From contig CAYIBK010000004.1 in NCBI GenBank assembly GCA_964361645.1, forward strand, positions 1 to 54,761: a stretch of DNA of 54,761 nt, written 5' to 3'. Of the stretch, positions 3,990 through 49,925 are shown in pieces (within the stretch, counting starts at the first letter, position 1; each line of letters starts with the position of its first letter). The position numbers were made by a program, and so were the translations under genes. Below the pieces are notes generated by a model. The model was not told the DNA's origin. It searched no databases and worked only from the letters and a program-made list of their open reading frames with translations. Source of the stretch: an uncultured Gammaproteobacteria bacterium (GTDB taxonomy: Bacteria > Patescibacteriota > Patescibacteriia > 2-01-FULL-39-33).

Positions 3990-4105
3990 ATTATTTTATT
4001 TTACTAGCTGGTTAGCTTATTAGCTTATTAGGATTTATTTATAATATTTTCTTCATAAACGATCCCTAATAAGCTAAAAAACTACAACCTACTATATATT
4101 AATTA
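3990..4105. repeat. AT-rich word-palindrome leader (tagcttattag ... ctaataagcta), paralog of 6712-6815
   Basis: ttattttactagctggttagcttattag is shared with 6715-6750, and ctacaacctac is shared with 6795-6805. Internal inverted words are present. Confidence 0.7.
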
Positions 4106-6004: not shown

Positions 6005-6036
6005 ATTTGGCTTAATTTATTAGGATTTATTTTTAA

Positions 6037-7305: not shown

Positions 7306-7650
7306 TTATAAAGTTTTAATAAAACCAGATAATAATTTAGATATTTCTAATGATTTATTATATAATTCATTAAAATTTAACTTAGAAATATATTTAAATT
7401 TTAATGCCAAATATAACATTGATCGCACCTCTCCACAAGAACCCTTGGCAATATATAAAAAATTTTTAAACTCTTTATTAGTATTTCTTTCAAACCCCTC
7501 AGCTACATTATTCATAATAGAGACGGAAGCTCTTTGAATTTGGTTTTTAAAAGCATAATCATTTAAATTCTTAAAGTTATTATACACCAGAACAGTTAAT
7601 TCTCCAGATTTCTGCCAAGCTATTATATCTTCAAATCTATTTATTTTCAT
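7306..7650 (-). CDS. four-helix-bundle protein (23S rRNA intervening-sequence protein family, TIGR02436-like)
   Basis: 114 aa. The pattern FEDIIAWQKS..L...VY........D..FKNQIQRASVSI.NN.AEGF.R.....F..FL.IA.GS..E is the hallmark of this family. Confidence 0.85.
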   Translation of the reverse strand: MKINRFEDIIAWQKSGELTVLVYNNFKNLNDYAFKNQIQRASVSIMNNVAEGFERNTNKEFKNFLYIAKGSCGEVRSMLYLALKFKYISKLNFNELYNKSLEISKLLSGFIKTL

Positions 7651-12616: not shown

Positions 12617-13165
12617 GGGATTGCTTCACTAATTTGTCATTGCGAGCTTGTCTACCGTAGGTAGGCGAAACGAAGTGGAGCGAAGCAATCTCATTTCTAA
12701 TTCCGTGGGATTGCTTCGCAAGCTCGCAATGACTGCTGTAAATCATGGGATTGCGGAGCCTGTCCCGAGTTTACGAGGGATCTCCTCGCAATGACAACTG
12801 TAAACCGTGGGATTGCTTCGTGCCTCGCAATGACGATGAAGTAAATCGCCATAATGACCTTTGTCATTGCGAGCCTACCTGCCGGCAGGCAGGGGAGCGG
12901 AGCGGGTCCTCGCGAAGGCGGGGAAGCAATCTCGTTTCTAATTCCGTGGGATTGCTTCACTGCGTTCGCAATGACGGTGTGTTTGTCATTGCGAGGGAGC
13001 GGAGCGGACGAAGCAATCTCGTGGTGTGTATCAAATGTGATTGCTTCGTTCCTCGCAATGACAACTGTAAACCGTGGGATTGCTTCGCAAGCTCGCAATG
13101 ACTGCTGTAAATCATGGGATTGCGGAGCCTGTCCCGAGTTTACGAGGGATCTCCTCGCAATGACA
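12617..13165. repeat. array of A-type palindromic elements (three full hairpin units plus half units), with a 90-nt internal direct duplication and one B-type palindrome at 12874-12893
   Basis: Full units lie at 12636-12732, 12863-12975 and 12985-13061. The block gggattgcttcgcaagctcgcaatgactgctgtaaatcatgggattgcggagcctgtcccgagtttacgagggatctcctcgcaatgac occurs at about 12707-12794 and again at about 13075-13164. Confidence 0.9.
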
Positions 13166-13193
13166 GTGGAAATAATTGCAATGACCTATGACC

Positions 13194-16100
13194 TTAATTT
13201 TTATTAACCACTAGATTAATATAATGCGGTGAGTTCTCGTTCTCGCAATTATCTGCTGGAATAGCGCTGTCAAAAGTGCAATTGGACTTATTCCAATTAT
13301 CATAAACCTGTACGATAACTTGTATGGTACAACTATCACTATCACAGATACTTGATGGAGCACCCTTAACTTTCCAAAAATCATACAAATGGTACAGAAG
13401 GAAAGGATTTTCAATATTGGTTCTGTTTCTTAATAATACACCACTTACCTTGGAATGCTCACCATCGCCCCAGGTGACAGTATAAGCGGAAATAGGCAAT
13501 TGATCAGGATCTATTAAGGTAGTAAAAGCCAACTTAGCCAAACCAACACCGCCATTAATGGTGGGTGGCTTATTACTGGCGTTATCTTTATCGTTTATTT
13601 TTATTTTAGTTACTTTTGGCTTAACATAACAAGGATCGTTAGTGGATTCTTCTCTGGTAGCTTTATTACAAATTTCAGTTGGGATAGACAAGAAATCATT
13701 AGTATCGTCTGATGCATAATAACCGCCCCTTTCAGCATCGGGTTTAAAACAATTATTAGGAAGACCAACTAGACACAAATTCCATTTCCATTTCCACTGG
13801 CCATAACTTTGAGCAAATAATTGCTCTAAACCTGCCTTACTGTGCAATTCACCCATTCTAGCCTGATATGGCGCAACAAAAGCACCTAATCGTGGTGGTT
13901 CATAGAACAGCGGCATATTATAAAGCCCTCTTCTACTGCTCCAATTGGTGGGATTAGGACTGCCACTAAGTTGTTGAGCGTTAAGTTCGTTGGCGGCACT
14001 ACCCGAGGAGTTAAGAAGACTGCCCATGGGCGAAACTATGGCTCCAAACGGCTGGTAATCGGAAGATTGATACTTAGACCTTCCTAGTGGAGAAAAATCA
14101 TCGCCTATTGAAATTGGTATAGCATCAGGAATAGCACCGGTAATCCTAGCCCATATTTGATATATAGTTCTAGATGCTGCACCAGATATACTACCAGGAA
14201 AATCCAAAGCAGTTCCTCCGATATATTGCCCTAAAGGATTTTCTATTGAATCAAGAAACTGATTGTAATCAAATGGATCATAATAATAATATTTGCCTTC
14301 TTTTATATCAATGGGTCCAGGCGTATCTGGGCGAGCTGCTATATCATTATTAATATAGCCAGAACCCTTGGTTACTCTATTGGCATAAGCTTTGTTTTCT
14401 CCGGATGAGGTTACCACTCGAACCAGCTTGTTACAGTAATTAACTTCAAAATCACCGCTAACCAGCATAGTAATACCCACCACATCAGCATTGGCGGTTG
14501 ATTTAACAAACCAAGACACACCCAGTATATCACCGGGCAAATCAGGAATGGGATCAGAAGTACCGCCACTGGTAATACCACTAGCTTGCCTGTCTTCTAT
14601 TACCTTTAAACCCATTAGAGGGCCAAAAGCTACTTGACCTCCGCCCATACCAGAGCTATTAAATATTCCAGTGATCATTTCAATAACCTGTCCAATTGGA
14701 CCAGATGCTAATTTATAAGGAATTGGAATTGGTATACAAATACCAATTTCAGTACTCTCTATTGGAATTGCAATGCAAAATGGGATAGCCGCCCAACCTT
14801 TCCATTCCTTTTTCTTAATATCATAAGTCATTGTATGATTAACAGGAATCATAATGGAGGGAGTCCCGCCAGCCAAGCCCATACCATTGGCCTTCACTTT
14901 AATTCTATCCACATAAGGGAATCTAAATATCGGCCGATAATCATCTTTCACTCTAAAAGGCGAAAAATTCATCTGATTACCACTGTTGGTATCAAAATAA
15001 CCGGCTACCGCTTCTTGAGCTTCCGAGCTAAGTGCTAAGGCATAACCAAATTCAGTAAAGTTAACAGTAAAAGATGATTTATCAACACAATAATCCAAAG
15101 GCACCCTGTCGTTATAACCGCCAACTTCGTTTAAGACTTCTCCTTGTAATTGATCCACTGGCCACCACTGCAAACATTGCTTGGAGTTGCTAGGATCAGC
15201 CAATAAACAGTAGCCATAACTGCCATAGAACAAATTATTGCCTTGCAAATACCTACAAGAAAGGGAATCTTCAGCCGGATAAATACGGCAACTTCTGGAA
15301 ACATATTTATCAATTAAGTTATCACTATTACTAACTTGCAACACCGGCTTAAGAGAAATGTCATCAAACAAAGCCACTCCGCCCAATTTGCAGGCAGTTA
15401 ATTTATTAGTATCATTGCAACCGTCCTCATCAACAAAATTTTTCAATTTAATCTTTATTTTGTCGGTATCAGCTAAGGGTGTAAATTGATGCACTTTTTT
15501 AGTCCAAGTCAGGCCACTATCCAAAGATAAACTGCCACAAGACGAGCTATCACAAAGCGAAGCATCATCAAAAAATTTCCAAGTGCTCCAACCGCCTCCT
15601 TCGGCATGCTGGCTGTATTGAATTTGGGATTTAATCGGTACATTACCATCGGGATAATTCAAGCCGGAGGAATTAATCCAGCCAGAAAGAATATAAGGAC
15701 TGCCGGCAAAAACATCTATTTCTTCGGAAATGGCTTCGTAGAAAGAGCTTAAAGACAAATATCTGGAGCCCTCGGGACTGCTTTTTATATCGGTAATCGT
15801 GCTAAACTTATAATCATGCCAGCCGATAGCTTCTGATTTAAATTTTTCCAATATCCCTCCATTGTCGATTGACTCTGACGGACTCCAACCTAAGGGTTCA
15901 ACAGAATTAACCACTAAAGATTCAAAACTGCCATTGGTTACCGAGCCGGAATCGCCAAATTGGCTCATGGTATAAAAGGGGAAATAGCCGGCCACACCCA
16001 AACTCTTTTTACCCACCGAAGAATAACCGGTCTTATAAATATCTTTTTCACCGTAATTTTCGGTAGCTAGTGTGCCTGATTTCAAGATGAAGTTATTGCA

Positions 16101-33807: not shown

Positions 33808-35004
33808 ATGAACCAATACATCTTTATCTTGGGCAATAACCCCGAATTATCGGTGGCAGAAATTAAAGCTCTCTTCCCCCAAATTGAAATTAGCACCAAA
33901 ACCAATATCGCCTTAATTGGGAAATTAGTTGATTTTGACTGTGGCGAGGCCATAAAAAAACTCGGCGGCACTATTAAAATCGGCCAAGTTATCGACCAGA
34001 AAATTGATAAGGAGCTTATCATTAAAGAGATAACCCAAAGGGCTAAAATTCACCCTGTTAAATATGATAATAAACAAAACCAAGATTTTGTTAATAATAA
34101 TCCAACCGAAAAAACTGCCGATAATTCTGAAAAATTATTTAACAGGGTAAATTACGGCTTAAGCTTTTATGAAACCAAGCCCACCAAAATCGGCATGGAA
34201 ATAAAAAAGGAATTAAAAGCCCGAGGGTTGTCTAGTCGTCTGGTTGTGAGCCGGGAAAAAGTTTTATCATCGGTTATTGTCAAAAAAAATAAAGTAACCG
34301 AATTTTTAATCCTACCTAGTATCTTAGCCCTCACTTGTGCTGTTCAAGAATTTGAGGCATACGGCAAAAGAGATTACGGCCGGCCCAAAAGCGATGCCCA
34401 CTCCGGCATGTTGCCACCCAAATTAGCCAGAATGATGATCAATTTATCAGGAGCCAAAAACGATGATCTTATCCTGGATCCTTTTTGCGGTTCGGGCACG
34501 GTTTTAACCGAGGCACTAGCCTTAAATTACAAAAATATAATCGGTAGCGATCTAGCCGCTAAGGCTTGTGAAGACAGCCAAGACAATTTAGATTGGCTAT
34601 GTGGCGAATACCATATCACCGATGCTAAATATGTTATTTATAATATTGGGGCCGATAAATTAAGCAGTAAAATAAAGCCGAGAGCAGTTGGGGCAATCAT
34701 CACCGAGCCGTATTTGGGCCCAACCATAAAAGAGGATGAAAAAGAAAGCCATATTTTTAAAATCATTTCCGGAATAGAAAATATTTATTTAAAAGCTTTC
34801 ACCGAATTTAAAATTGTTTTAAAGACAAATGGTCTGGTGGTAATAATTATGCCTTTCTGGCACTTGGGCCAGAGAGAATTTAAATTAAGAATAGAAAATA
34901 AAATAGCCAACTTAGGCTTTAAAAGGCTGGATCGTGGCAACTTAATATACAGCCGGCCGGATCAAAAAGTTTGGCGTCAAATAGAAATTTGGCAGAATAA
35001 ATAA
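33808..35004 (+). CDS. SAM-dependent methyltransferase, UPF0020/Trm11-RlmL-like (probable RNA guanine-N2 methyltransferase)
   Basis: Motif I LDPFCGSGTVLTEA and motif IV ITEPYLG. 398 aa. Confidence 0.65.
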   Translation: MNQYIFILGNNPELSVAEIKALFPQIEISTKTNIALIGKLVDFDCGEAIKKLGGTIKIGQVIDQKIDKELIIKEITQRAKIHPVKYDNKQNQDFVNNNPTEKTADNSEKLFNRVNYGLSFYETKPTKIGMEIKKELKARGLSSRLVVSREKVLSSVIVKKNKVTEFLILPSILALTCAVQEFEAYGKRDYGRPKSDAHSGMLPPKLARMMINLSGAKNDDLILDPFCGSGTVLTEALALNYKNIIGSDLAAKACEDSQDNLDWLCGEYHITDAKYVIYNIGADKLSSKIKPRAVGAIITEPYLGPTIKEDEKESHIFKIISGIENIYLKAFTEFKIVLKTNGLVVIIMPFWHLGQREFKLRIENKIANLGFKRLDRGNLIYSRPDQKVWRQIEIWQNK

Positions 35005-35016
35005 ATATATTTAAGC

Positions 35017-35260
35017 GTCATTGCGAGGGAGCAAAGCGAACGAAGTAATCCCAATTCCTCTAATATGAGATTGTCGCGTCGCCCTCAAGCTCACCGCAAT
35101 AACGGTGTGTTTGTCATTAGCGAGCCTGCCTGCCGGCAGGCAGGGAACGAAGCAATCTGACACGAAGCGTCATCCCGACCCCGCACTTGATGCGGGGAAA
35201 GGGATCCCTTGGTTTTATTACTATGGGATTGCTTCTCCGCCCTGGGCGGATCGCAATGAC
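35017..35260. repeat. composite A-type elements with nested B-type palindrome (35124-35143) and a nested gtcatcccgac-type sub-element
   Basis: gtcattgcgaggg..., then gtcattagcgag|cctgcctgccggcaggcagg|gaacgaagcaatc ... gggattgcttctccgccctgggcggatcgcaatgac. Confidence 0.85.
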
Positions 35261-35286
35261 GATTATTTGCATGATAATTAAACAAT

Positions 35287-35315
35287 AAAAAAAGCGAGGA
35301 GTATTTCATCCTCGC
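35287..35315 (-). terminator. rho-independent terminator of GC-rich cassette 1
   Basis: Minus strand GCGAGGATGAAATACTCCTCGC followed by TTTTTTT. Confidence 0.7.
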
Positions 35316-35336
35316 ACTAATTTTGTTTGGTTGGCT

Positions 35337-36080
35337 TTAAGCCAGAGCCAGAGCCGGTGGTGCCGTCTGGGCCTGCTGCCAATCTTGCAAATAACTGGGC
35401 TGGGTGCTATCAGACCAGAAACGGTTCATCAGCTCGCCCACCACCGAGAAAACGAATCGCTTGGCGCGCTGTGCCGCTTCTTTCGTCTCGCCCTCAGCAG
35501 GCTGGATACCATAGGCAAAGCAGACTGCTTGCCACTGACCACCGACACCCGAAAAAATCTTGGCTTCGCCGTCCTTTACGGGGCCGGCCACATCGTTGTT
35601 GAAACGCTGAACACGGTAGAACACCCTGCGTCCTCGATGGGACAACAGAATGTCAACCTGCGAGTAGCGCGTTCCATACCCGCGACCGAGGTGAACCGTG
35701 GCCAGGTAACAGAGCACGCCATCCACGCGTTCGGAAACGGCATTGGACTTCTCTGGAAATTCGGGAGTGGCCGGAATCTTGCGTTTGACGCTGTAACTGC
35801 CATCTTGATCAGCAATACCCGCCACCGCCGATTCGACCACAGAAACCACTTGCTCGAAAAACGATTGCTCGTCCAATTCTGGCGCTACAATGTAGCAATA
35901 ATGTTCGTCATCATAGAAAAAGATATTAACGCCATCAATAGTTTCAAGCGCATCAAGCGCCGAATCAACGCAGTCGCCACTTACGACAATTTGATGACTA
36001 CCGGCATAATATTGATCAGTAAAATTGTCTTCATTAAGAGTAAAATCTCGACCAACACGTTCCAATTCCTTCAACGACAT
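35337..36080 (-). CDS. GC-rich orphan protein 1 (247 aa, no recognisable family)
   Basis: GGAGG lies 7 nt before the ATG, with its own promoter and terminator. The protein-like acidic composition contrasts with the Arg-rich junk of the antisense 35331-36110 ORF. Confidence 0.65.
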   Translation of the reverse strand: MSLKELERVGRDFTLNEDNFTDQYYAGSHQIVVSGDCVDSALDALETIDGVNIFFYDDEHYCYIVAPELDEQSFFEQVVSVVESAVAGIADQDGSYSVKRKIPATPEFPEKSNAVSERVDGVLCYLATVHLGRGYGTRYSQVDILLSHRGRRVFYRVQRFNNDVAGPVKDGEAKIFSGVGGQWQAVCFAYGIQPAEGETKEAAQRAKRFVFSVVGELMNRFWSDSTQPSYLQDWQQAQTAPPALALA

Positions 36081-36193
36081 TTTGAAGCCTCCAGTTTTGC
36101 GGTTAAATAACCGCGCCCAAGTTCTAAATAGCGCTACTATGCGCTTTATAGACAGATTAAAGGTACTTTAGAGCCGTACTTGTACGACTTAGT

Positions 36194-36222
36194 ATCTTAT
36201 CATAAATAAGAAATTATGTCAA
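36194..36222 (-). promoter_or_regulatory. sigma70-type promoter of cassette 1
   Basis: Minus strand TTGACA-17 nt-TAAGAT. Confidence 0.5.
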
Positions 36223-36382
36223 TACCTTAATAAAAATATGGCTTATTTTAGGTGTTTTTTTGTTTGATTAATTATTCTACTTATTTATTTAGATAAATAA
36301 TCTTTTATTATTTTTGCCCCACCTGTCTATGTAAATATACCAAATATCTTTTATTACACTTTTTAATATTTATTTCTTTTTT

Positions 36383-36627
36383 AGCCACTTTTGCAAAAGT
36401 GGCGCAAACCTGCCTGCCGGTAGGCAGGACTACGAGCATATAAAAACTTAGGCACTCTAAATATATGGTCATTGCGAGCGAAATGAAATGAAGCGAAGCA
36501 ATCTGATGCGAAGCATCATTCCGAGCAAGGCGAGAGATCTCTTGGTTTTATTACTACGAGATTGCTTCACTGCGTTCGCAATGACGATTGAATTGCTTTG
36601 CGCTTAATCTAAATTTTTCAATTGTCG
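36383..36627. repeat. D-type composite element copy 1: gccacttttgcaaaagtggc hairpin + B palindrome (36409-36428) + left arm + A-type hairpin (36468-36585) + right arm
   Basis: The arms cgagcatataaaaactta... and cgcttaatctaaatttttcaattgtcg are inverted relative to each other. Confidence 0.8.
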
Positions 36628-36656
36628 CCTATTTATTAATATATTTATAAATAAAT

Positions 36657-36838
36657 CTGCCTACCGGCAGGCAGGACTACGAGAGATGAAAAATTTATCA
36701 CCACAAATATATTGTCATTGCGAGCGAAACAAAGTGAAGCGAAGCAATCTCATTTGATATAAACATGGGATTGCTTCACTGCGTTCGCAATGACGATTGA
36801 ATTACTTTCCGCTTAATCTAAATTTTTCATATGCTCGA
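36657..36838. repeat. D-type composite element copy 2: B palindrome (36657-36675) + arm + A-type hairpin (36714-36794) + arm
   Basis: actacgagagatgaaaaattta ... gtcattgcgagcgaaac...cgcaatgac ... ccgcttaatctaaatttttcatatgctcga. Confidence 0.85.
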
Positions 36839-37074
36839 TTTATTTTTTATTTATCAATAAAATTTAATTAACTAACTGCTTGCCTTAAAAAATATTGTGC
36901 TAATTTTATACAACAGTGAGCGTTAAAAGCCAACTCAGGAGCGAAGGGACATTTGTTGGCTTAGCGAACTGTGATAAAATTAGCCATGATTTTTTATAGC
37001 AAGCGACTTTTCTTTTTGTTAGCTTTTTCTTTTCTTAGAAAAGAAAAAGTAAAGTAAACACAAAAAAATACTAT

Positions 37075-37150
37075 GTCGTTGCGAGGAACGAAGCAATCTC
37101 ATTTCTGATTCGATGGGATTGCTTCATTCGCTTCGCTCCTTCGCAATGAC
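37075..37150. repeat. A-type element, near-identical direct copy of 43864-43939
   Basis: About 85 nt including flanks (tactatgtcgttgcgaggaacgaagcaatctcatttctgattcgatgggattgcttcattcgcttcgctccttcgcaatgacaca) differ at 3 positions from the 43.86-kb copy. Confidence 0.9.
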
Positions 37151-37201
37151 ACAAAAAAACAGCATGGAAAATGCTGAATAAAAAGTTCCTATAAATAATT
37201 C

Positions 37202-37231
37202 GAGGGCAGATCAACGTTGTGATCTGCCCTC
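37202..37231 (-). terminator. hairpin terminator of cassette 2
   Basis: GAGGGCAGATC-8 nt-GATCTGCCCTC, an 11-bp perfect stem. A second hairpin, CAGCATTTTCCATGCTG followed by TTTTTTT, lies at about 37160-37185. Confidence 0.55.
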
Positions 37232-37264
37232 TGATGGATGTGTGTGGAGTAGTCCTTTGGTGGA

Positions 37265-38110
37265 CTACACGGTCGCGACTTCCGCCTTCTTGGCCTTCTT
37301 GGCCTTCTTGACGGGCGCCGAGTCCGCGGGCGCTTCTTCCGCCTGGAGCTGGATCTTCAGGGCTTCGAGGCCCGGGAAGGTTTCTCCAATGGTGGACGTC
37401 AACGGAGCAACCGACACGCGATGAACCGATGCCCTCAGACCCTGGCGACGGAGCTGGTTCTGCGCCAAATCGATCAGCGGACGAACCATGGCGTACAGGA
37501 AGCGTTCGTTGATGTTCAACTCTTGCGCCGCCTTTTCGCCGCCTTCGACTACCTTCGTGATCGGCTTTTCGACTTCCGATTTGGACTCGGCGTCGAAAGA
37601 CTTCTTCACGAAGGGGCGGTATACTAGCTGGCCAAGCTCGTTGGGGTACTGGCCGAAGAGCGTCGCGTAATACATGGTCTTGTCACCATCCGCGACCACC
37701 TTCACTAGCCAGAAGCTCGGGCGTACGAACTTGTACTTGTACCGGCCATCCTGCTGTTCCGATTGCGTTCGAAACGGCAAGCCGTTGGCCGAACACACAA
37801 CCCGGAACGCCGATCCCGATGCGTCAAGTATGGGTTCGGTCTGCATTTCGCTCACCGGAACGGAGAGCGCCAAGCAGTAACGAAGCTTTGATTTCTCGAG
37901 GACCGCCTGGAAATCGGTCAAGCCGTCGAGTGCTTCGTCATCAACCGCTGCGAACGTCGCAAAGCGGTTTCCTTCGAAAGTCTTGAGTTCGCCGGGGGCG
38001 TCAATCGCCGCCAACAACTCTTCTGCCTTCGAGACATCTTCGTTCATCACGGCGATGCCTGCGAGAGCGTTGTTGCGGATTTCTTGTGCGTTGCCTGATT
38101 GGGTCTTCAT
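37265..38110 (-). CDS. GC-rich orphan protein 2 (281 aa) with Lys/Ala-rich C-terminal tail
   Basis: GGGAGA lies before the ATG. The tail APADSAPVKKAKKAKKAEVATV resembles histone-H1-like nucleic-acid-binding tails. No family recognised. Confidence 0.7.
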   Translation of the reverse strand: MKTQSGNAQEIRNNALAGIAVMNEDVSKAEELLAAIDAPGELKTFEGNRFATFAAVDDEALDGLTDFQAVLEKSKLRYCLALSVPVSEMQTEPILDASGSAFRVVCSANGLPFRTQSEQQDGRYKYKFVRPSFWLVKVVADGDKTMYYATLFGQYPNELGQLVYRPFVKKSFDAESKSEVEKPITKVVEGGEKAAQELNINERFLYAMVRPLIDLAQNQLRRQGLRASVHRVSVAPLTSTIGETFPGLEALKIQLQAEEAPADSAPVKKAKKAKKAEVATV

Positions 38111-38211
38111 TCTTGAATCTCCCTGAATTGTGACCTTGGTTTTATTCCCTTGGTCTCTCCAATGTGCGCCCTCGCCAATTGTGGTTCGGGCTTCGCGTTA
38201 TGCGATATCTA

Positions 38212-38241
38212 CACTATAGCACACCTATCAAATTTTGTCAA
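38212..38241 (-). promoter_or_regulatory. sigma70-type promoter of cassette 2
   Basis: Minus strand TTGACA-17 nt-TATAGT, about 95 nt upstream of the ATG. Confidence 0.55.
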
Positions 38242-38439
38242 GGGGTAATAGTGGATAATTATTGTTTTTTGGCTAATTTTAGGTATTTTTATGCTAATTT
38301 ATTAATAAATCATTTTGATAAATTTGTTTATTAGTAAACTACTATGCCCCTACGGATATAGCATTTTAGAACAGACAAATATTTTGTTTCTGTCATCCCG
38401 CACGAAGTGAAACGCAGATGCTAGATCCACATCGGCAAA

Positions 38440-38556
38440 CCCCCTCTAACTCCCCCTTGGAAAGGGGGAGAACATTTCCCCCCTCCTGCCAGAGCCTGCC
38501 TGACATGCCTACGGCAGACAAGCCGGTAGGCAGGGAGGGGGTGGGGGTGGTGGGAG
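38440..38556. repeat. C-type repeat carrying the 40-bp expanded B palindrome (38495-38534)
   Basis: cccctctaactcccccttggaaaggggga ... cctgcctgacatgcctacggcagacaagccggtaggcagg gagggggtgggggtggtgggag. The 40-mer differs at 1 nt from 25029-25068. Confidence 0.85.
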
Positions 38557-38599
38557 TATTCTTCCTTTTGTCATCTCCGACCTGATCGGGGGACACACC

Positions 38600-38681
38600 G
38601 TCATTGCGAGGAGTCCTCGTGAAGACGGGGAAGCAATCTTATTTGAGATAAACATGGGATTGCTTCGTGCCTCGCAATGAC
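38600..38681. repeat. A-type element (left half identical to 52546-52595)
   Basis: gtcattgcgaggagtcctcgtgaagacggggaagcaatcttatttga... Confidence 0.9.
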
Positions 38682-38824
38682 AAACACATCATAGTATTTA
38701 GTGGATAAAATAATAGCTAAATTTTGTAGATGATTGTATAATATGATTAAGATACATTAAAAAGATAAATTTTTATCTAGACATCTCTCCTAGATGCCAA
38801 TTTAAATAATCATATTATTAAATT

Positions 38825-39919
38825 ATGTTTAAAAAAATGAAGCAAGCAACTAAGCTTAAGGTGAAAGATCGCACCGTAGTTTTAACGGTTGGTGCTGTAA
38901 TCATTATTGGTGTCTCTATGGTTATCGCCTCACTTTTACCCTCATCCGGTTTGGGAAATTTTTCTGCTAAGAATATTAGTGGTGGTAGTTGTGTAGGGCC
39001 AGATTGTGGTTACTGTGTATACAATTATGATCTCCTTGGACATGTTAGTAAAAAACTTTCAACACTTGCAGAGTGTCAAATCGAGGGAATTATTCCTGAT
39101 ATGTATGGCAGCACCGGCAGTGGTTGGTATGCCTTCTGCCCAGGAATGAGCAGAGCAGATGGTGATGCCGGAAAATGTAATTGTAGTGCAGGAATTAGTG
39201 AAAAGAGTCCTCGTTTAACGAACGGTATAGATCGAGATGGCAAGATTGAATCGCTTAATAATGGCGATCTTCTACTACAAAATGATCAAGATGGTATTGA
39301 TGATCTGATTGATATTGGCGCGGCCACATCGCTTCGTTGTGAATGCGGTGTTCTAGCAAGTGATTGGGGAGGAGCGGTGCTTAATAATGGAAAACCGGTT
39401 TTGATTCCAGGCGTGAATGCACCATTATATGAATTCACGGGTGTGAGTGGTCAGCAGAAATTGATTCAGGAATGGGCCAAGTTGTTGACTAAAATGACAA
39501 TATTCCAGCCAAATGATTTTCTTAGTTGTAAAAACACTTGGCCGGCGGGGTGTAGTGTCACCAGAAGTTATGATGAGGGTGGTCGTAGTAAATGTAAGAA
39601 TGGTTCAACTCCCCTTAGTCCACATGGGCGTGGTTTAGCAATTGATATTACATGTAAAGAACTGGTATCAAGTAGTGGGGGTTGTACTGGTACCCAAACA
39701 GCAGACCTATTAAAGGCCATCAAGGCAGCTGGCTCGAAATTTAATATCATTCAAGAGTGTAGCACAGCACAACAAGCATGTAATGGAACTTCTGGGGGAA
39801 ACCAATTGATTCACCTTGATTTAGTTGGCCCAAATGATGGATGTCCACGTGGCGGTGATGGCACTAAACCATGCATGTATACAAATTGTGATTTCGTTTG
39901 CGAATCAACAACACCATAA
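38825..39919 (+). CDS. membrane-anchored Cys-rich exoprotein with C-terminal LAS/peptidase-M15-like domain (probable cell-wall hydrolase)
   Basis: The N-terminal TM is VVLTVGAVIIIGVSMVIASLL, and there are more than 25 Cys. SPHGRGLAIDI fits the SxHxxGxAxD zinc motif and LIHLDL fits the distal H-x-D motif of M15A/YcbK-type enzymes. Confidence 0.6.
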   Translation: MFKKMKQATKLKVKDRTVVLTVGAVIIIGVSMVIASLLPSSGLGNFSAKNISGGSCVGPDCGYCVYNYDLLGHVSKKLSTLAECQIEGIIPDMYGSTGSGWYAFCPGMSRADGDAGKCNCSAGISEKSPRLTNGIDRDGKIESLNNGDLLLQNDQDGIDDLIDIGAATSLRCECGVLASDWGGAVLNNGKPVLIPGVNAPLYEFTGVSGQQKLIQEWAKLLTKMTIFQPNDFLSCKNTWPAGCSVTRSYDEGGRSKCKNGSTPLSPHGRGLAIDITCKELVSSSGGCTGTQTADLLKAIKAAGSKFNIIQECSTAQQACNGTSGGNQLIHLDLVGPNDGCPRGGDGTKPCMYTNCDFVCESTTP

Positions 39920-39938
39920 TAATTAAACAAAGTGAAGA

Positions 39939-39970
39939 CCCCAGAGCAATGTGCTCTGGGGCCGTTTTGT
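39939..39970. terminator. bidirectional hairpin terminator between convergent genes
   Basis: CCCCAGAGCA-atg-TGCTCTGGGG, a 10-bp perfect stem, followed by CCGTTTTGTGTG. Confidence 0.65.
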
Positions 39971-39977
39971 GTGAAGG

Positions 39978-40643
39978 TTATTTTTCTTTCGAAGCAATCG
40001 GTGTCGCTTCCGAGGTGATGATGGCATCGCTGATGACGCCGACATCCGTGAGTGCCTGAAGGCGATCCTTGACAGTACCGCCCTCTCCGAGCCGAAGTCT
40101 AATGAACCATGCTTTATTGACTTGACAAGCTTGCTGCCAGTCTTCATCGCTGGGCCCATATCTCACGGAGATATAGTAAATCCTAAGTGATTCCCAGTCT
40201 TCCGCGACTTCGAATATTGTTGATAGCTCATAGATACCGACTGCAGGAGAATTGAAAGCGATACTGACAACTCCGTCCGATCCTTTCCAGGCGGCCCAAA
40301 CTGCTTTGGTTTTTTTAACTATTTCGGGCTTGGTCATCTTTTCATCTTGGATGACCTTCTCCAGACCTTTGACATCGGGACGGATTGGATACGAGTCCGA
40401 ACACTCCCCAGTCTTCGGATTTGGATTTCCGACACCGCACCGTGTCTTGCTGGGCCGGTTCGTGGCCAGCAAATTGGCAGTGCCGAAACCAAGAAATTCT
40501 ACAGTGTCGTTTTTCTCTTTGGCCACCTGACAAGCAGCCTTGATCTGGACGATGAACTGTTCATCGCTGATCGGTTCGGGTGTGGGTTCGTCGGCAAAGA
40601 CGGAAAGACTTAACACTATCGCAAGAAACGCTATACGGAACAT
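39978..40643 (-). CDS. GC-rich orphan secreted protein 3 (221 aa)
   Basis: Signal peptide MFRIAFLAIVLSLSVFA|DEP. AAGGAGG lies before the ATG. No family recognised. Confidence 0.7.
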   Translation of the reverse strand: MFRIAFLAIVLSLSVFADEPTPEPISDEQFIVQIKAACQVAKEKNDTVEFLGFGTANLLATNRPSKTRCGVGNPNPKTGECSDSYPIRPDVKGLEKVIQDEKMTKPEIVKKTKAVWAAWKGSDGVVSIAFNSPAVGIYELSTIFEVAEDWESLRIYYISVRYGPSDEDWQQACQVNKAWFIRLRLGEGGTVKDRLQALTDVGVISDAIITSEATPIASKEK

Positions 40644-40739
40644 TGCTGTTCCTCCTTATACATTTATGGCTCTAAACCTCGGTTACAACTGGCAACCGGA
40701 GTTTTTGAGACGCACTTCAAAGAACAATTCAATAATTTT

Positions 40740-40768
40740 ATTATACTACATATTAGTTTTTTTGTCAA
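40740..40768 (-). promoter_or_regulatory. consensus sigma70 promoter of cassette 3
   Basis: Minus strand TTGACA-17 nt-TATAAT. Confidence 0.6.
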
Positions 40769-40986
40769 GACCAATGGATATAAGTGCTAAAAATGGTCTA
40801 ATTATACTGTTTATTTAGGTAATTTTATAATATTAGAGATAAAAGTTTAAGATAATCTTTTATTAAAGAATCTTTATTTTTAAAGCGAAATCTTGACAAC
40901 CCGAGCCCACAAGCCACGGCTTTTAGGCCGTGGATACGGCCGCCCCGTAGCCCTGAGCCAGAGGCGAAGGGCGAAGGGCTATTTAT

Positions 40987-41162
40987 CTTGGTTCTTTTGA
41001 TTTTGAATGGTAGAATGTTGAAATATGAAATATGATAAGATTTTCCCTTGGAAGAGTTCTTGTGGGGAGATAGTTTTTGGCAGGATGGATATTTCATTGA
41101 GACAATCGGCAGAATAGATGAGAGAAAGATGAGAGAATATATTCAAAATCAAAAGAACCAAG
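40987..41162. repeat. perfect 22-bp inverted repeat pair (40987-41008 and 41141-41162) around the transposase remnant
   Basis: cttggttcttttgattttgaat and attcaaaatcaaaagaaccaag. A GC-rich hairpin, ccacggcttttaggccgtgg, lies at about 40915-40935. Confidence 0.85.
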
Positions 41163-41191
41163 AGCCTGATTCGTCAAGCTCCGGCCTTTAG
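41039..41191 (+). pseudogene. C-terminal remnant of an IS200/IS605-type Y1 transposase (TnpA) or RAYT
   Basis: Translates to DFPLEEFLWGDSFWQDGYFIETIGRIDERKMREYIQNQKNQE, which matches by eye the conserved C-terminus (FP.L....W...FW..GYF..T.G.......YI.NQ). It is preceded by in-frame stops, so only about 45 codons survive. Confidence 0.55.
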
Positions 41192-41198
41192 GGAGAGG

Positions 41199-41227
41199 TT
41201 GACAAATAATTATTTTTAGTGTATATT
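41199..41227 (+). promoter_or_regulatory. sigma70-type promoter of cassette 4
   Basis: TTGACA-17 nt-TATATT; GGAGGAG lies 8 nt before the ATG. Confidence 0.55.
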
Positions 41228-41284
41228 AATTAGTAATTTACAATCAATGTAAATGTCAACCAAAAAAGATGGAGGAGTAAAACA

Positions 41285-41650
41285 ATGCGTTCTTTGATTA
41301 TTCTGGGATTATGCTTTATGGCGGTTGGTTGCACCACAATGCGGCACACAGCACTAATACTGCCACCATATGACGACCCAATCCTGCAAGCGGCATACGC
41401 TCGTTGGGAAAAGATTGATGCTTCGCAACCGACAAAGTTTCAAGCGCGTTTGCTGGAATTGTACGACATTGATCTTAAGAACAAGACAGATCAACAATTC
41501 GTCAAAAGTTTCCTCTGGATCAATGCCCATCAGCTTTCGGCCAAGGACAAGATATTTTTAATGTCCGAATCTATAATTATGACCGGCACCAACGACGCCG
41601 TCTATGATCGCCGCGTTAGCGCCAGCGTAAAACAAAACACCAAGTGGTAA
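41285..41650 (+). CDS. GC-rich orphan lipoprotein 4 (121 aa)
   Basis: Lipobox MRSLIILGLCFMAVG|C. No family recognised. Confidence 0.7.
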   Translation: MRSLIILGLCFMAVGCTTMRHTALILPPYDDPILQAAYARWEKIDASQPTKFQARLLELYDIDLKNKTDQQFVKSFLWINAHQLSAKDKIFLMSESIIMTGTNDAVYDRRVSASVKQNTKW

Positions 41651-41675
41651 TCACTTGGTGTCTTTTTATTTTTTT
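41637..41675 (+). terminator. rho-independent terminator of cassette 4
   Basis: ACACCAAGTG-gtaat-CACTTGGTGT followed by CTTTTTATTTTTTT. The stop codon lies in the loop. Confidence 0.8.
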
Positions 41676-41702
41676 AAATTTATTTTAACACTACTTCCGC
41701 AC

Positions 41703-42449
41703 CTATTTCGTACCTTTAAACTTACAACATCGGTATTTACCCCCACCCGATCCACCACATTTCAATTCTCCTCCTATATTTTTTCCCGTAGCGTCTTCTA
41801 TCTCGTGTCCTCCGATGCTCACATCATCACATCGTTTGGGTGAATCAAATTGACCCCCTACAAGAGTGCATCCGAAAGTGTATTGATCGTAATATGGCGG
41901 ATCTGCAAGAGGATGAAAATCGCCTAGCGATGGTAGTAAATTATCACATTCAGTAGTGGCGGCACTTCTGCAGATGCCGACTTCTTTTGAGGCATTAAAT
42001 TCATTCTGCTGTATTTTATCAATCCATGCTCCTCTTCTACATAAAAATAAATCCTTGGTCGCTTTGCAATCGTCATTACTATTACAGCTACAACTTTTTT
42101 GGGGAGTACAAATGTCCCCTGGGTAGGTTTCTCCTAGTAGCGGGTAGTTCTGACAATTCTGGTTTGAAAGGCACTGCACACATTTACCTAGTCCTTTGTC
42201 ATCAGCGGTACAATATAAACCTCCGTCAATTATTAAGCTACATTCGGGATGTGTACCATCGGGGTTAAGTGTTTTTTTCAAATCACATTCTCCTATTCCT
42301 GCTTTCCACTTGGCATTGGAAAATTTACCACTGCCAATGGTTGGAATTAAGGTGGCAATCGAGGCCGATACGCCAATGGCCACCGCAATTAATACAATAG
42401 CCACCGCCACCCGGGTATTTACCTTGGTTTTTATAAAATTTTTGGACAT
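41703..42449 (-). CDS. membrane-anchored Cys-rich exoprotein (248 aa)
   Basis: The N-terminus VAVAIVLIAVAIGVSASIATLIPTIGSGKFSNAK parallels that of 38825-39919 (VSMVIASLLPSSGLGNFSAK). It has roughly 24 Cys and ends in KCGGSGGGKYRCCKFKGTK. Confidence 0.7.
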   Translation of the reverse strand: MSKNFIKTKVNTRVAVAIVLIAVAIGVSASIATLIPTIGSGKFSNAKWKAGIGECDLKKTLNPDGTHPECSLIIDGGLYCTADDKGLGKCVQCLSNQNCQNYPLLGETYPGDICTPQKSCSCNSNDDCKATKDLFLCRRGAWIDKIQQNEFNASKEVGICRSAATTECDNLLPSLGDFHPLADPPYYDQYTFGCTLVGGQFDSPKRCDDVSIGGHEIEDATGKNIGGELKCGGSGGGKYRCCKFKGTK

Positions 42450-43247: not shown

Positions 43248-43316
43248 GCCTACCTACTAGCAGGTAGGGAATTTTACTTGCTCGCCTGTTTTATTAATAC
43301 AATTTATAAAAAACAA

Positions 43317-43498
43317 CTCGAGTATATGAAAATTTGGATTAAACGGAAAGTAATTTAATTGTCATTGCGAGGAGATCTCTCGTAAACTCGGGACAGGCTC
43401 CGCAATCCCATGTTTATATCAAATGAGATTGCTTCGCTTCATTTCATTCCGCTCGCAATGACAATATATTTAGAACGCTAAATTTTTCATATGCTCGA
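43317..43498. repeat. D-type composite element copy 3 (arms + A-type hairpin 43361-43462)
   Basis: ctcgagtatatgaaaatttggattaaacggaaagtaatt ... gtcattgcgaggagatctctcgtaaactcgggacaggctccgcaatccc ... gaacgctaaatttttcatatgctcga. A B-like palindrome lies at 43249-43268. Confidence 0.85.
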
Positions 43499-43705
43499 TA
43501 TTAATTTATAAATAAAATAATGCCAGCATAATAACCGAGCTGTTATAAAATCAGGTTGAAGACGAATGCTGGCGAGCGTCTGGCGAAGCCAAATTTCGTC
43601 TGTTTGAAACATTTGCCTACTTTATTAAAATAAAAGGCAAATGTTGAGTTGAGAAATTAATGAGCCTGAAACTTGATTTTATCGGCGAGGGAATTCGCTG
43701 GCGAG

Positions 43706-43725
43706 CCTGCCTGCCGGCAGGCAGG
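43706..43725. repeat. B-type perfect palindrome
   Basis: cctgcctgccggcaggcagg. Confidence 0.9.
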
Positions 43726-43863
43726 TTTTGGAAAAACCTTTTGCGGTCAAAAGGTTTTAAAAGATTATTTAAAGATACAAAATTAACAATAAATACTTTT
43801 TTTAAAAAAAGGTGGCGAAAGAATATTTAACAATACAAAAGTAACAAGAATAAAAATTACTAT

Positions 43864-43939
43864 GTCATTGCGAGGCACGAAGCAATCTCATTTCTGATTC
43901 TATGGGATTGCTTCATTCGCTTCGCTCCTTCGCAATGAC
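43864..43939. repeat. A-type element, near-identical direct copy of 37075-37150
   Basis: Same 85-nt block with 3 mismatches, same orientation. Confidence 0.9.
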
Positions 43940-43950
43940 ACATAAAAATA

Positions 43951-43993: not shown

Positions 43994-44128
43994 TTAGACG
44001 ATACTAATAAACCCAGTAAAAAATCCAATCAGTGGTTTAACAAAACTTTCCCAAACGCCAACAATAGCCACCGCCGAAAGCAGTATCATAGAATAAAATA
44101 ATATTTTTAATTTAGCATCATCATCCAT
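43994..44128 (-). CDS. possible small membrane peptide (44 aa)
   Basis: MDDDAKLKILFYSMILLSAVAIVGVWESFVKPLIGFFTGFISIV. It lies between the ychF stop and the terminator. No clear SD. Confidence 0.3.
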   Translation of the reverse strand: MDDDAKLKILFYSMILLSAVAIVGVWESFVKPLIGFFTGFISIV

Positions 44129-44138
44129 AATAATTACA

Positions 44139-45188
44139 TTATACATTAAATCTAAAATGGCAAACATCCCCATCTTGCACCACATAATCCTTGCCTTCCA
44201 ATCTAATTAAGCCTTTTTCCTTAGCTTTTACTTCCCCGCCATTGTCTACAAAATCATGCCAATTAATCACCTCGGCTCTAATAAAGCCTTTTTCAAAATC
44301 AGTATGGATAACACCGGCTGCTTGTGGAGCATATGACCCACTTTTAATTGTCCAAGCTTTGGCCTCTTGCGGACCGGAAGTGAAAAATGTTATCAAGTCC
44401 AAAGTATCATACGACTTTTTAATTAATTTGTCAAGTCCAGATGATTCTAACTTTAATTCTTTTAAATATTCACTAGCTTCTTCCTTAGGCAATTCCGATA
44501 AATCAGCTTCTATTTTAGCCGAAATGGGAATATAATCAGTTGCCTGAAAAATATTATCTTCATCAACATTTAGAACATAAATCATCGGTTTCATAGTTAA
44601 GAGATTCAAATCCCTGATCAATAATTTTTCTTCCTTATCAGTTATGATATCAATGGCTAATTTGCCCTCTTCCAAACCCTTTTTTAATTTTTCGTAAATA
44701 GGTTGGAGAATTTTGGCTTCTTTGTCATTGCCTCTGGCTAATTTTTCATTTTTACCGATACGGCCATCAACTGTTGCCAGATCGGCAAAAATTAATTCTA
44801 AATTAATCGTTTCTTTATCTGATTCCGGATCAATTTTTCCATGAACATGAGTAACATCCTTGTCGCTGAAATGACGCAGGACTTGGACGATGGCATCGGT
44901 GTTCCTAATATTAGCCAAAAACTTATTACCCAAGCCTTCGCCTTTGTGAGCGCCAGCCACTAGCCCAGCAATATCCACAAACTCAATGGCGGTAGGAACT
45001 ATTTTGGCAGAATTAGACACTTTAGCTAATTTTTCCAATCGGGCGTCGGGCACGGCAACCACACCAACATTGGGATCGATGGTACAAAATGGATAATTAG
45101 AAGCATCAACCTGTTTTTTGGTTAAGGCCTTGAATAAAGTTGATTTCCCTACATTAGGTAGTCCTACTATACCCACTGATAATGACAT
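44139..45188 (-). CDS. ychF: ribosome-binding ATPase YchF (Obg-like GTPase family)
   Basis: GIVGLPNVGKSTLFKALT P-loop, FVDIAGLV..A..GEGLGN, and a C-terminal TGS-like domain. 349 aa. Confidence 0.9.
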   Translation of the reverse strand: MSLSVGIVGLPNVGKSTLFKALTKKQVDASNYPFCTIDPNVGVVAVPDARLEKLAKVSNSAKIVPTAIEFVDIAGLVAGAHKGEGLGNKFLANIRNTDAIVQVLRHFSDKDVTHVHGKIDPESDKETINLELIFADLATVDGRIGKNEKLARGNDKEAKILQPIYEKLKKGLEEGKLAIDIITDKEEKLLIRDLNLLTMKPMIYVLNVDEDNIFQATDYIPISAKIEADLSELPKEEASEYLKELKLESSGLDKLIKKSYDTLDLITFFTSGPQEAKAWTIKSGSYAPQAAGVIHTDFEKGFIRAEVINWHDFVDNGGEVKAKEKGLIRLEGKDYVVQDGDVCHFRFNV

Positions 45189-49203: not shown

Positions 49204-49818
49204 TTAAAGTACGTCATTATTTAACCTGCTTTGGCGCTGATAATAGGTCATCAGTGCCAGAATTAAAATAACAAAAACAATTGTTCTTACAGAATAGATT
49301 ACAGCTAAAACATTCCCACCTTGTATTGATGGATAGAGGGCTAATATCCCAGCTGATAAACCGCATACCCACGCCACATATGATTCTACATTGCGTTTTT
49401 CTTGATGTAGACTAAGGATTGTTGGAATATAACCAAGACCGATGAGCATTTGGGTGAAAATATTACTCCTCCAAGCATCTTGAGAAATTATTCCAAAAAG
49501 GACAATAGCCGATACTCCACCCAAATACCATTTCTCAAATGATCTAAAAACTATTTTCCTGCCCCCGTAATAAACCAGGGCTAATAAAATAATAACGGTT
49601 GCCAGAAAATCCATAGTGTTTAAAATGCCAGAACGCCAATCCCCTTCTTCAGCCAAAAGATAAGTTAATAGGCTTAATCCAGTGCCTATTACAAAAGTTA
49701 TCCAAGTGGAAAGGGTCGGCACCACGCCACTCTTTTTACTTTGTTTAATCTGATGTGTATAGCATACAACAAAAATTATCACTACCATACCAACAAGAGC
49801 TACAAATATATCTTTCAC
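49204..49818 (-). CDS. polytopic membrane protein, unknown function
   Basis: 204 aa, six or so hydrophobic helices. Confidence 0.6.
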   Translation of the reverse strand: MKDIFVALVGMVVIIFVVCYTHQIKQSKKSGVVPTLSTWITFVIGTGLSLLTYLLAEEGDWRSGILNTMDFLATVIILLALVYYGGRKIVFRSFEKWYLGGVSAIVLFGIISQDAWRSNIFTQMLIGLGYIPTILSLHQEKRNVESYVAWVCGLSAGILALYPSIQGGNVLAVIYSVRTIVFVILILALMTYYQRQSRLNNDVL

Positions 49819-49925
49819 TTTTGAATTCCTTCTTGGTTTGAATTGCCAATGAACAACTTACCATTATATCACTGGGTTAGGTTTTTGTCAAGTTACATTT
49901 TTTATTAATAATATACAAATAATAA

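Follow-up and report, generated by a model that had tools for sequence, protein, structure and literature searches.

Does a strongly atypical base composition mark a gene as a recent arrival, or can it be held in place in a gene that a lineage has long inherited? Four open reading frames (ORFs) in a contig of 54,761 nucleotides (CAYIBK010000004.1, analysed over its whole length and called the window below) raise this question. Named here ORF1 to ORF4 (Table 1), they are present where an original prediction, made from the letters of the sequence, had placed them, and they are much richer in G+C than the genes around them. That prediction took them for foreign single-gene modules acquired one after another, possibly from a host organism. 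The evidence instead points to ORF2 and ORF1 being old residents whose transcription units are held GC-rich, and not recent imports. ORF3, whose product would be secreted, and ORF4, a putative lipoprotein, are probably younger or narrower additions on the same plan.

The organism is a Candidatus Buchananbacteria-like bacterium of the candidate phyla radiation (CPR) from the Hainich groundwater well H51. Its nearest named genomes are metagenome-assembled genomes (MAGs) of Candidatus Buchananbacteria (one copy labelled Falkowbacteria), with core proteins 65-89% identical to those of the window. The window has a G+C content of 37.7% and carries rpsF-ssb-rpsR, efp, leuS, a femAB-like gene, a gene of the MFS family, ychF, the RNase T gene (rnt), folD, glyA and a gene for a 3073-aa protein. 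The four ORFs, which are genuine, independently transcribed protein genes, lie within a rearrangement-prone island whose borders are ychF/RNase T and a methyltransferase-rpsF operon.

Composition of the four genes

Over the 33 remaining genes of the window, the G+C content at third codon positions (GC3) is 0.315 +/- 0.051 (standard deviation, sd) and nowhere exceeds 0.417; the four ORFs stand +4 to +8 sd from these genes. G+C is raised at all three codon positions in the set, ORF4 standing out at the third only. The G+C content of 55-68% that had been counted by hand is reached in local windows of ORF1 and ORF2 (maximum 0.635) but was overstated for ORF3 (peak about 0.53) and ORF4. Codon tables are radically different from those of the window background: ORF1 and ORF2 together use AAG for 87% of lysines (background 22%), AAC for 76% of asparagines (16%) and TTC for 67% of phenylalanines (14%), and avoid TTA (0% versus 39%) and AGA (0% versus 42%) entirely, with GAA usage the same as in the background, at 73-75%. 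NCG codons (GCG, TCG, ACG) are enriched in the GC-rich genes, and amino-acid usage is shifted too, toward Ala, Val and Arg and away from Ile, Lys and Asn.

The change in composition is abrupt. Upstream DNA has a G+C fraction of 0.19-0.28 (0.42 for ORF4, because a GC-rich IS200 relic and a repeat adjoin it), promoters 0.14-0.31, leaders 0.41-0.50 (0.27 for ORF4) and coding sequences (CDSs) 0.46-0.58, and the step up coincides with the predicted transcription start. The remaining GC islands of the window are tRNAs and palindromic-repeat arrays, not genes. Dual coding was considered for ORF1, over which a 259-aa antisense ORF extends, and rejected: this frame is broken in 6 of 6 homologues and is a by-product of composition.

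Such steps could arise if GC-rich reads of another organism had been stitched into a CPR contig, and the low coverage (3-5x) and an alternative junction at 38250 in one contig, L007, would fit. Yet ten contigs from separate assemblies (L001-L009 and L021; Hain_H51, ENA ERZ12926xx, from the 0.1 and 0.2 um filter fractions of the one well) match the window at 99.7-100% identity, each GC transition being spanned by at least two of them, and MAGs of other sites, from unrelated studies, have the same GC-rich genes in the same surroundings. The probability of a chimera, which the original prediction had also discounted, is therefore practically negligible. As for L007 (Hain_H51_01um_R3_1063), it runs from 50643 down to about 38250 and then continues at 4003 (L007:12390-12400), skipping 34 kb that include rpsF, efp, leuS, ORF1 and ORF2, so that essential genes would be deleted. 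Its junction (38246-38250) falls after the conserved distal block described below, 5-8 nt before the -35 box of ORF2 and without microhomology. L008 and L021 support the window arrangement at 38250, and L007 is either a low-coverage misjoin or a real rearrangement.

Descent of ORF1 and ORF2

A search of 5.8 billion proteins returned seven relatives of ORF2 (56-77% identity) and nine of ORF1 (53-82%). The ORF2 family thus has eight members, none with a Pfam match, and the ORF1 family ten, none with a Pfam domain; the named relatives are all hypothetical proteins of Buchananbacteria or Falkowbacteria. Among 185,579 species genomes the ORF1 family occurs in three, all Buchananbacteria, and the metagenome contigs of JGI added only three more ORF2 loci. 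None of the collections searched yielded a homologue outside Buchananbacteria-type contigs, with searches of limited sensitivity (those for ORF1-3 were seeded on shared 5-residue words and have limited reach). A phage or plasmid origin was set aside, as there were no relatives of either family in IMG/VR, of ORF2 in PLSDB (searched with ORF2 only) or of ORF1 in INPHARED (searched with ORF1 only). The derivation from a host or donor organism that had been proposed thus finds no donor lineage among the proteins, species genomes, viral contigs, plasmids and phages searched.

Position is equally constant. Wherever a contig is long enough to show it, ORF2 and then ORF1 are followed by a convergent methyltransferase gene and the rpsF operon, and in Buchananbacteria genomes the synteny reads ORF2-ORF1-(methyltransferase)-S6-SSB-S18-EF-P-LeuRS. 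ORF1 sits at the same position in every relative with contig coverage, where ORF2 or an ORF2-type cassette is likewise present; this cassette adjoins ORF1 in the relatives except in the lineage of the CG10_33_19 genome (Buchananbacteria; contigs L012-L014 and L020). Of the four genes, which had been suggested to form a functional set (immunity, anti-host or surface modification), linkage can be demonstrated for ORF1 and ORF2 only.

Substitution patterns agree with vertical descent. L025 and L012 form a close pair (86% nucleotide identity over 7.4 kb), in which synonymous divergence (dS), near saturation and so noisy, is 1.22 for ORF1, 1.48 for RNase T, 1.15 for the methyltransferase and 0.73 for YchF. 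Nonsynonymous divergence (dN) is 0.337 for ORF1 versus 0.05-0.06 for these three neighbours, and dN/dS for ORF1 is 0.28. The ORF1 protein evolves about 5x faster than its neighbours while being inherited with them, which explains why its pairwise identities stay at 0.51-0.69 whatever the host distance. Allelic replacement, considered as the cause of low ORF1 identity in close relatives, was rejected because dS equals that of the neighbours. The identity of ORF2 follows that of the methyltransferase with r = 0.91 over 6 pairs. Alignments of both proteins contain many invariant columns and show ordinary purifying selection. ORF1, judged by dS in one close pair, and ORF2, judged by identity tracking in 6 pairs, have thus been inherited mainly vertically.

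This bears directly on the alternative of a continuing import, in which a GC-rich reservoir not yet sampled, be it a host bacterium, a plasmid or a phage, would supply CDSs that are repeatedly recombined into conserved flanks and never ameliorate. Such an import sits badly with a distribution confined to Buchananbacteria-type contigs, with the strict conservation of ORF2-ORF1 position and order, with an ORF1 dS like that of the neighbours and an ORF2 identity that tracks the host, and with an island free of integrases and intact transposases. The homologues of ORF1 and ORF2 are just as GC-rich as these genes are, which is close to an outcome (core genes of the same lineage with similar GC) that the original prediction had itself named as evidence against its reading. 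Serial import of foreign modules is not supported for these two clade-specific, syntenic genes; at best it applies to ORF3, ORF4 and an occasional CDS swap.

Maintenance of GC-richness

GC3 of ORF2-type genes is 0.734, 0.715, 0.719, 0.672, 0.729, 0.747 and 0.712 in the window and six other lineages, and 0.79 in a further, truncated copy; it thus stays near 0.72 in hosts whose flanking genes have a GC3 of 0.24-0.43. ORF1 homologues exceed their background by 0.07-0.21. Between lineages, third-base identity at 4-fold sites is 0.30-0.54, in core and GC-rich genes alike, where chance gives 0.27-0.29. The persistence of a high ORF2-type GC3 despite nearly saturated synonymous sites indicates that GC-richness is maintained and is not a fading relic.

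We examined the relic case with a simple exponential relaxation toward host equilibrium, using the residual identity of ORF2 (0.365, window versus L015). About 36% of an initial GC3 excess would be left per lineage, and ORF2 would need an ancestral GC3 above 1, whereas a donor GC3 of about 0.8 would be enough for ORF1 and ORF3. Only ORF2 therefore strictly excludes a passive relic.

A coding sequence replaced within its cassette

In the CG10_33_19 genome, at L012 6303-7115 (-), lies a gene of the ORF1 family (hhalign probability 99.5%, E 8e-23; with the ORF2 family the probability is 3.8%) that is preceded by an ORF2-type distal motif, promoter and leader (78.9 bits with covariance model R1, see below) and ends in the last ~13 ORF2 codons followed by the ORF2 tandem terminators. 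In the close relative L028 a true ORF2 homologue stands between flanks that are 86-90% identical. Read from the sequences, a GC-rich CDS of the ORF1 family has here taken the place of the ORF2 CDS, in frame and within its cassette, which shows that cassette content is exchangeable. The incoming CDS and the resident ORF1 share only 30% identity, and the GC3 of the former is 0.71 in a genome at about 0.27, versus 0.34 in the resident ORF1 orthologue 3 kb away. GC thus follows the cassette, not the protein family. The swapped unit is bracketed by 198-bp direct repeats (5983-6178 and 7424-7619; 93% identical) of a family also present in the window.

The clean in-frame replacement is also what an import would produce. 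Import would further explain why codon usage and amino-acid composition resemble those of a genome of about 55-60% GC, why island content varies among relatives (the E14 genome has another GC-rich gene there, of 333 aa and GC3 0.63), why an IS200 relic adjoins ORF4 and MITE-like repeats flank the cassettes, and why ORF3 and ORF4 are almost without relatives. Set against the conserved position and codivergence of ORF1 and ORF2, these points leave continuing import a conceivable explanation, though on the unlikely side.

Alternatively, local GC-biased gene conversion at a recombination hot spot could drive GC up without selection on products or transcripts. The island has been rearranged among relatives (in L012 ychF-rnt is inverted and the cassette relocated), is full of dispersed repeats and has undergone one recombination-mediated CDS swap, and GC is up at all three codon positions, as conversion would have it. 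It would not be expected to change sharply at transcript boundaries, leaving promoters and inter-cassette DNA at 14-31%, nor to spare the neighbouring genes for 364-, 248- and 251-aa proteins (GC3 0.29-0.42, ordinary), nor to leave two genes of one family in L012, 3 kb apart, with GC3 values that differ by 0.37. We consider conversion improbable.

Expression signals

Each ORF has its own TTGACA-17 nt-TAnnnT promoter, a strong GGAGG-type Shine-Dalgarno (SD) sequence 6-9 nt 5' of its ATG and a hairpin terminator with a T-run (two for ORF2), so the modular cassettes of the original prediction, individually promoted and terminated, stand. Perfect sites of this pattern number 6 in 54.7 kb, where 0.68 would be expected and none of 100 shuffled sequences has as many; the promoters of ORF1-ORF4 account for four of them. 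The other two are at 44406-44434 (-), inside ychF and 5' of a conserved 63-aa membrane ORF (43994-44185), and at 49863-49891 (-), 5' of the orphan gene 49204-49818 (204 aa), whose composition is not GC-rich.

Promoters, leaders and terminators are far better conserved than the coding sequences and proteins. A 21-nt distal motif stands 5' of ORF1, again 5' of ORF2 and nowhere else in the window, where 0.06 occurrences would be expected. The ORF2 promoter is kept in five ORF2-homologue lineages and in the ORF2-type cassette of L012; the ORF1 promoter core, TTATTTATGATAAGAT, is near-invariant across 8 lineages. The first ORF2 terminator hairpin, GAGGGCRGAYCACAACRTTGRTYYGCCCTC, is kept in 7 lineages with compensatory changes, and homologues carry the equivalent of the ORF1 terminator as GCGGGA...TCCCGC plus TTTTATTTTT.

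The ORF2-type leader consists of a 5'-terminal hairpin, a helix of variable sequence, a GCACATT motif, a third hairpin and the SD sequence; the motif is invariant in the six leaders of ORF2 homologues and changed in the cassette of L012. In the model-fitted alignment 84% of cells are paired versus 21-50% in slid controls, and six pairs have compensatory changes; the covariation score is 0.243 versus 0.155 in shuffles, 1 of 500 of which reaches it, and the fold z-score of the ORF2 leader is -2.75. Covariance model R1 finds one copy per genome (53-106 bits), for which reason we rejected the idea of a widely reused leader platform. For the ORF1-type leader, RNAalifold predicts 12 pairs over 8 lineages, 5 of them with compensatory changes. 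At gathering score Rfam 15 recognised only tRNAs, and the sole match with E<=1 in 34900-42000 was a chance miRNA.

ORF3 repeats the pattern: identity with L017 is 93% over promoter and leader but only 58% between the proteins. The minimum free energy of its leader is -27.9 kcal/mol (z-score -3.48), and the predicted sequestration of its SD sequence (Table 1) suggests translational control. This could be one side of a codon-gated translation, in which genes written in genome-rare codons (AAG, GCG, TCG, ACG, CGC, CTC) would depend on scarce tRNAs, as in a mirror image of the bldA/TTA control known from Streptomyces. In favour of such gating, codons are shifted to an extreme degree while GAA usage is unchanged. 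A codon-only mechanism would not need the GC shift that is also found in amino-acid composition and in leaders, and its tRNA evidence is limited to the 4 tRNAs of the window. Codon gating is accordingly very improbable in our view.

Table 1. Coordinates and composition of the four ORFs, their predicted expression signals and two neighbouring elements (positions in the window).
Feature	Coordinates	Strand	GC	GC3	Remarks
ORF1	35337..36080	-	0.519	0.532	247-aa cytoplasmic protein
ORF1 distal upstream motif	36239..36259	-			AAAAACACCTAAAATAAGCCA; also 5' of ORF1 homologues in L010, L027
ORF1 promoter	36194..36222	-			TTGACA, 17 nt, TAAGAT; TG extension
ORF1-type 5' leader	36081..36187	-			5'-terminal hairpin and hairpin just 5' of SD
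ORF1 terminator	35294..35315	-			hairpin, then T-run
ORF2	37265..38110	-	0.579	0.734	281-aa cytoplasmic protein; lysine/alanine-rich C-terminal tail
ORF2 distal upstream motif	38270..38290	-			AAAAATACCTAAAATTAGCCA; conserved 5' of ORF2 homologues
ORF2 promoter	38213..38241	-			TTGACA, 17 nt, TATAGT; TG extension
ORF2-type structured 5' leader	38111..38210	-			covariance model R1
ORF2 tandem terminators	37160..37231	-			12-bp hairpin 37202-37231; second hairpin 37160-37176
ORF3	39978..40643	-	0.495	0.527	221-aa protein; N-terminal signal-peptide-like segment (MFRIAFLAIVLSLSVFA/DEP)
ORF3 promoter	40740..40768	-			TTGACA, 17 nt, TATAAT; 12/12 consensus positions
ORF3 5' leader	40644..40735	-			5' end predicted to pair with SD and AUG
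ORF3 terminator	39937..39963	-			12-bp hairpin, bidirectional with 364-aa gene
ORF4	41285..41650	+	0.456	0.525	121-aa putative lipoprotein; lipobox AVG/C
ORF4 promoter	41199..41227	+			TTGACA, 17 nt, TATATT
ORF4 terminator	41637..41661	+			11-bp hairpin overlapping stop codon
Palindromic MITE-like repeat block	36400..37159	.			GTCATTGCGAG...CTCGCAATGAC; CCTGCCGGCAGG; families D1-D6, D9, D10, I1-I7
IS200-like Y1 transposase relic	41039..41188	+			Pfam PF01797, E 8.4e-8, 32.8 bits

The proteins

No recognisable family had been seen in the four products at first, and searches bear this out: there are no Pfam, NCBIfam, PADLOC or significant PHROG matches, and sequence and profile searches of PDB gave none either. 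ORF1 and ORF2 are two new alpha/beta protein families. Their AlphaFold2 models (mean predicted local distance difference test score, pLDDT, 88.8 for ORF1, a confident model, and 67 for ORF2, a moderate one) both start with an N-terminal beta-alpha-beta-beta-alpha-beta order and have an antiparallel sheet of 5-6 strands and a long C-terminal helix. Neither has a fold match with E<=1e-3 in PDB or BFVD. The N-terminal ~85 aa of ORF1 resemble weakly a PII/ferredoxin-like fold (Foldseek probability 0.9-0.97, E 0.02-0.05, template modelling (TM) score on the query 0.21-0.24); the whole protein has no structural match and no sequence-level match to PDB. CapZ-like fold matches were dismissed, with TM scores of only 0.12-0.15.

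The two proteins are not detectable homologues, the hhalign probability being 0.2% and profile comparison linking neither family to the other. The order of predicted secondary structures, a short motif and the shared upstream motif are the only hints of kinship; as they share the distal motif, the two genes may derive from a tandem duplication. The translation of ORF2 contains the KKAKKAKKA tail noted originally, and those of ORF3 and ORF4 the signal-peptide-like N-terminus and the lipobox (AVGC).

ORF3 has a single homologue in the 5.8 billion proteins (P0033, 58% identity), which has a GC3 of 0.59 and adjoins a homologue of the 364-aa neighbour; the 364-aa neighbour proteins of the two loci are about 35-40% identical. 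For ORF4, whose translation reads MRSLIILGLCFMAVG/C, with a putative signal peptide that ends in a lipobox, an exhaustive HMMER search gave no more than 5 relatives, all of them weak (identity 31-38%, E 2.5e-6 to 2.4e-4). Four were retrieved; three of them are small and have an N-terminal lipobox (LVGC, LAAC or LCGC) at the equivalent place, and all four share the motif (F)PWI(D/N)...RDK(L/I/V)F(L/I). A patchy distribution thus holds only for ORF3, with one syntenic homologue, and ORF4, with none close.

The island and its repeats

Between ychF/RNase T and ORF2 the island holds ORF3, ORF4, genes for 364-aa and 248-aa paralogues and one for a 251-aa membrane protein; in relatives these five genes are absent from the corresponding positions and other genes stand there. 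The 364-aa (38825-39919 +) and 248-aa (41703-42449 -) proteins have in common a membrane anchor at the N-terminus, in which 42 aa are 45% identical, and a richness in cysteine (20 and 18 Cys respectively), and their genes have an ordinary GC3; from their sequences these orphans are probably paralogous surface proteins. In the E14 genome the GC-rich island gene (L024:4362-5363, -) encodes 333 aa with a weak 4Fe-4S motif, has a GC3 of 0.63 versus about 0.43, and apparently forms a two-gene unit with a 141-aa gene, 5' of which lies a TTGACA promoter.

Intergenic DNA is, as first described, rich in repeats found elsewhere in the window, namely the palindromes of the block listed in Table 1. More copies lie at 35011-35290, 38390-38690, 43250-43950 and 12651-13200. 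The last is a GC-rich 550-bp array of the GTCATTGCGAG...CTCGCAATGAC type between the genes for an 837-aa and the 3073-aa protein, which yields spurious ORFs of 117-133 aa on both strands; a fifth GC-rich gene there was rejected accordingly.

The Y1 transposase relic covers model positions 88-121 of 121 (the C-terminal 34 residues), with stop codons upstream. It lies directly 5' of the ORF4 promoter, between the promoters of ORF3 and ORF4, and a perfect 23-nt inverted repeat (I9; 40986-41008 / 41141-41163) is found at it; a GC-rich, hairpin-containing stretch (40895-40975) precedes it. No integrase or intact transposase was found among the island ORFs, and none of the 4 tRNAs of the window is adjacent to the island. 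At 876-1018 (-) two tRNA-Arg(GCG) calls abut (71.7 and 36.9 bits), the second of which may be a degenerate duplicate.

Discussion

We propose that resident, vertically inherited ORF2/ORF1 units are held GC-rich and would give rise to high-output, nuclease-resistant mRNAs, a reading whose chances, taken as a whole, we judge to be about even. GC-richness starts at the transcription start and shifts amino-acid usage, which suggests that it is a selected property of the transcription unit and not a leftover of transfer. That selection acts on the transcript is suggested by what accompanies the composition: near-consensus promoters, hairpin-initial leaders and strong or tandem terminators. Together with a consensus promoter, a hairpin at the 5' terminus, a strong SD sequence and such terminators, a GC-rich body would yield high-output mRNAs able to resist AU-directed RNases, and the products would be abundant proteins. 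The basic tail of ORF2 may bind nucleic acid, possibly its own leader.

Several observations pull the other way. High expression and mRNA stability are deduced from sequence features. The enrichment of NCG codons is less suggestive of classic translational optimisation than of general GC pressure or of a foreign signature. Among native genes, S6 (GC3 0.31) and EF-P (0.38) should be strongly expressed and yet lack GC-richness, so that selection, if there is any, would have to be specific to the cassettes. In two lineages the GC3 of ORF1 is 0.32-0.34 versus 0.24-0.27, a small excess that partial amelioration fits. The swap in L012 shows that a GC-rich CDS can be imported, and thereby keeps a GC-rich reservoir in play; the word-seeded search missed the 30%-identical ORF1 paralogue of L012, and could equally have missed distant GC-rich donors. 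The dS values are noisy, as said, and no structural or family match of the four ORFs points to a function. For the same codon pattern (S6 and EF-P not GC-rich, G-ending NCG codons enriched), translational selection for optimal codons was discarded as unlikely.

A bolder version can be formulated. Buchananbacteria might keep a small class of privileged transcription units. Each would join a coding insert, exchangeable through recombination, to a conserved platform for expression made up of distal motif, consensus promoter, structured leader and tandem terminator, and its GC-richness would itself be selected, as a compositional route to long-lived, nuclease-resistant mRNAs in a reduced, AT-rich genome; ORF2 and ORF1 would then form an abundant two-protein complex, possibly autoregulated through binding of the ORF2 tail to the leader. 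We regard this as speculative and unlikely as a whole.

If ORF2 and ORF1 are indeed residents held GC-rich, the consequences reach beyond this locus. Atypical GC is routinely read as recent horizontal gene transfer, and the strongest outliers here are conserved, syntenic and largely vertical; composition-based transfer calls in reduced genomes could then be wrong. Some force, transcript selection or very local conversion, would be holding single genes off the mutational equilibrium of a small genome. Also, CPR bacteria would have clade-specific, probably abundant proteins and leader RNAs that can now be targeted. The L012 swap, with its conserved regulatory flanks, adds a documented example of modular gene replacement from an uncultivated lineage. 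Searches of the literature on Buchananbacteria, and on CPR with horizontal transfer and GC, returned nothing relevant.

Comparison with known systems

Lawrence and Ochman reportedly set out in 1997 the amelioration framework for compositionally atypical transferred DNA. Like horizontal-transfer islands, the locus deviates from its host in GC and codons, lies in a variable, repeat-rich region and contains a transposase relic. It differs in that ORF1 and ORF2 are conserved, syntenic and co-diverging, in that ORF2-type GC3 has not decayed, and in having no integrase, no tRNA or att border and no donor lineage found here. The Y1_Tnp match recalls IS200/IS605 elements, but it is a broken-frame relic beside ORF4 and not an active element carrying the cassettes.

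Integron arrays, too, gather single-gene modules in one locus, with exchangeable coding content. Integron cassettes are usually promoterless, whereas each module here has its own promoter, leader and terminator, and the genes face both directions. A Pfam scan of the ORFs of 33.8-43.2 kb gave no recombinase match that could be an IntI, the flanking genes being housekeeping genes, nor did any attC-type site with the GTTRRRY core come to light, although no dedicated attC model was run. The inter-gene repeats are dispersed palindromes of a type other than attC that also occur outside the island.

The leaders of ompA, aprE and ermC are 5' stabilisers of long-lived bacterial mRNAs. The units described here share with them a hairpin at or near the predicted 5' end and a strong SD sequence, together with strong intrinsic 3' terminators; unlike them, these leaders are new, without an Rfam match, and their mRNA stability is predicted. 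We know of no description of a GC-rich mRNA body in those stabiliser systems.

Finally, selection or biased conversion favouring synonymous GC has reportedly been described by Hershberg and Petrov in 2010, Hildebrand et al. in 2010, Raghavan, Kelkar and Ochman in 2012, and Lassalle et al. in 2015. Our locus shares with such genome-wide trends the need for a force opposing AT-biased mutation. Here, in contrast, only a few transcription units in a genome of 34-44% GC show the effect, which amounts to +0.3 to +0.5 in GC3 and is thus far stronger and more local.

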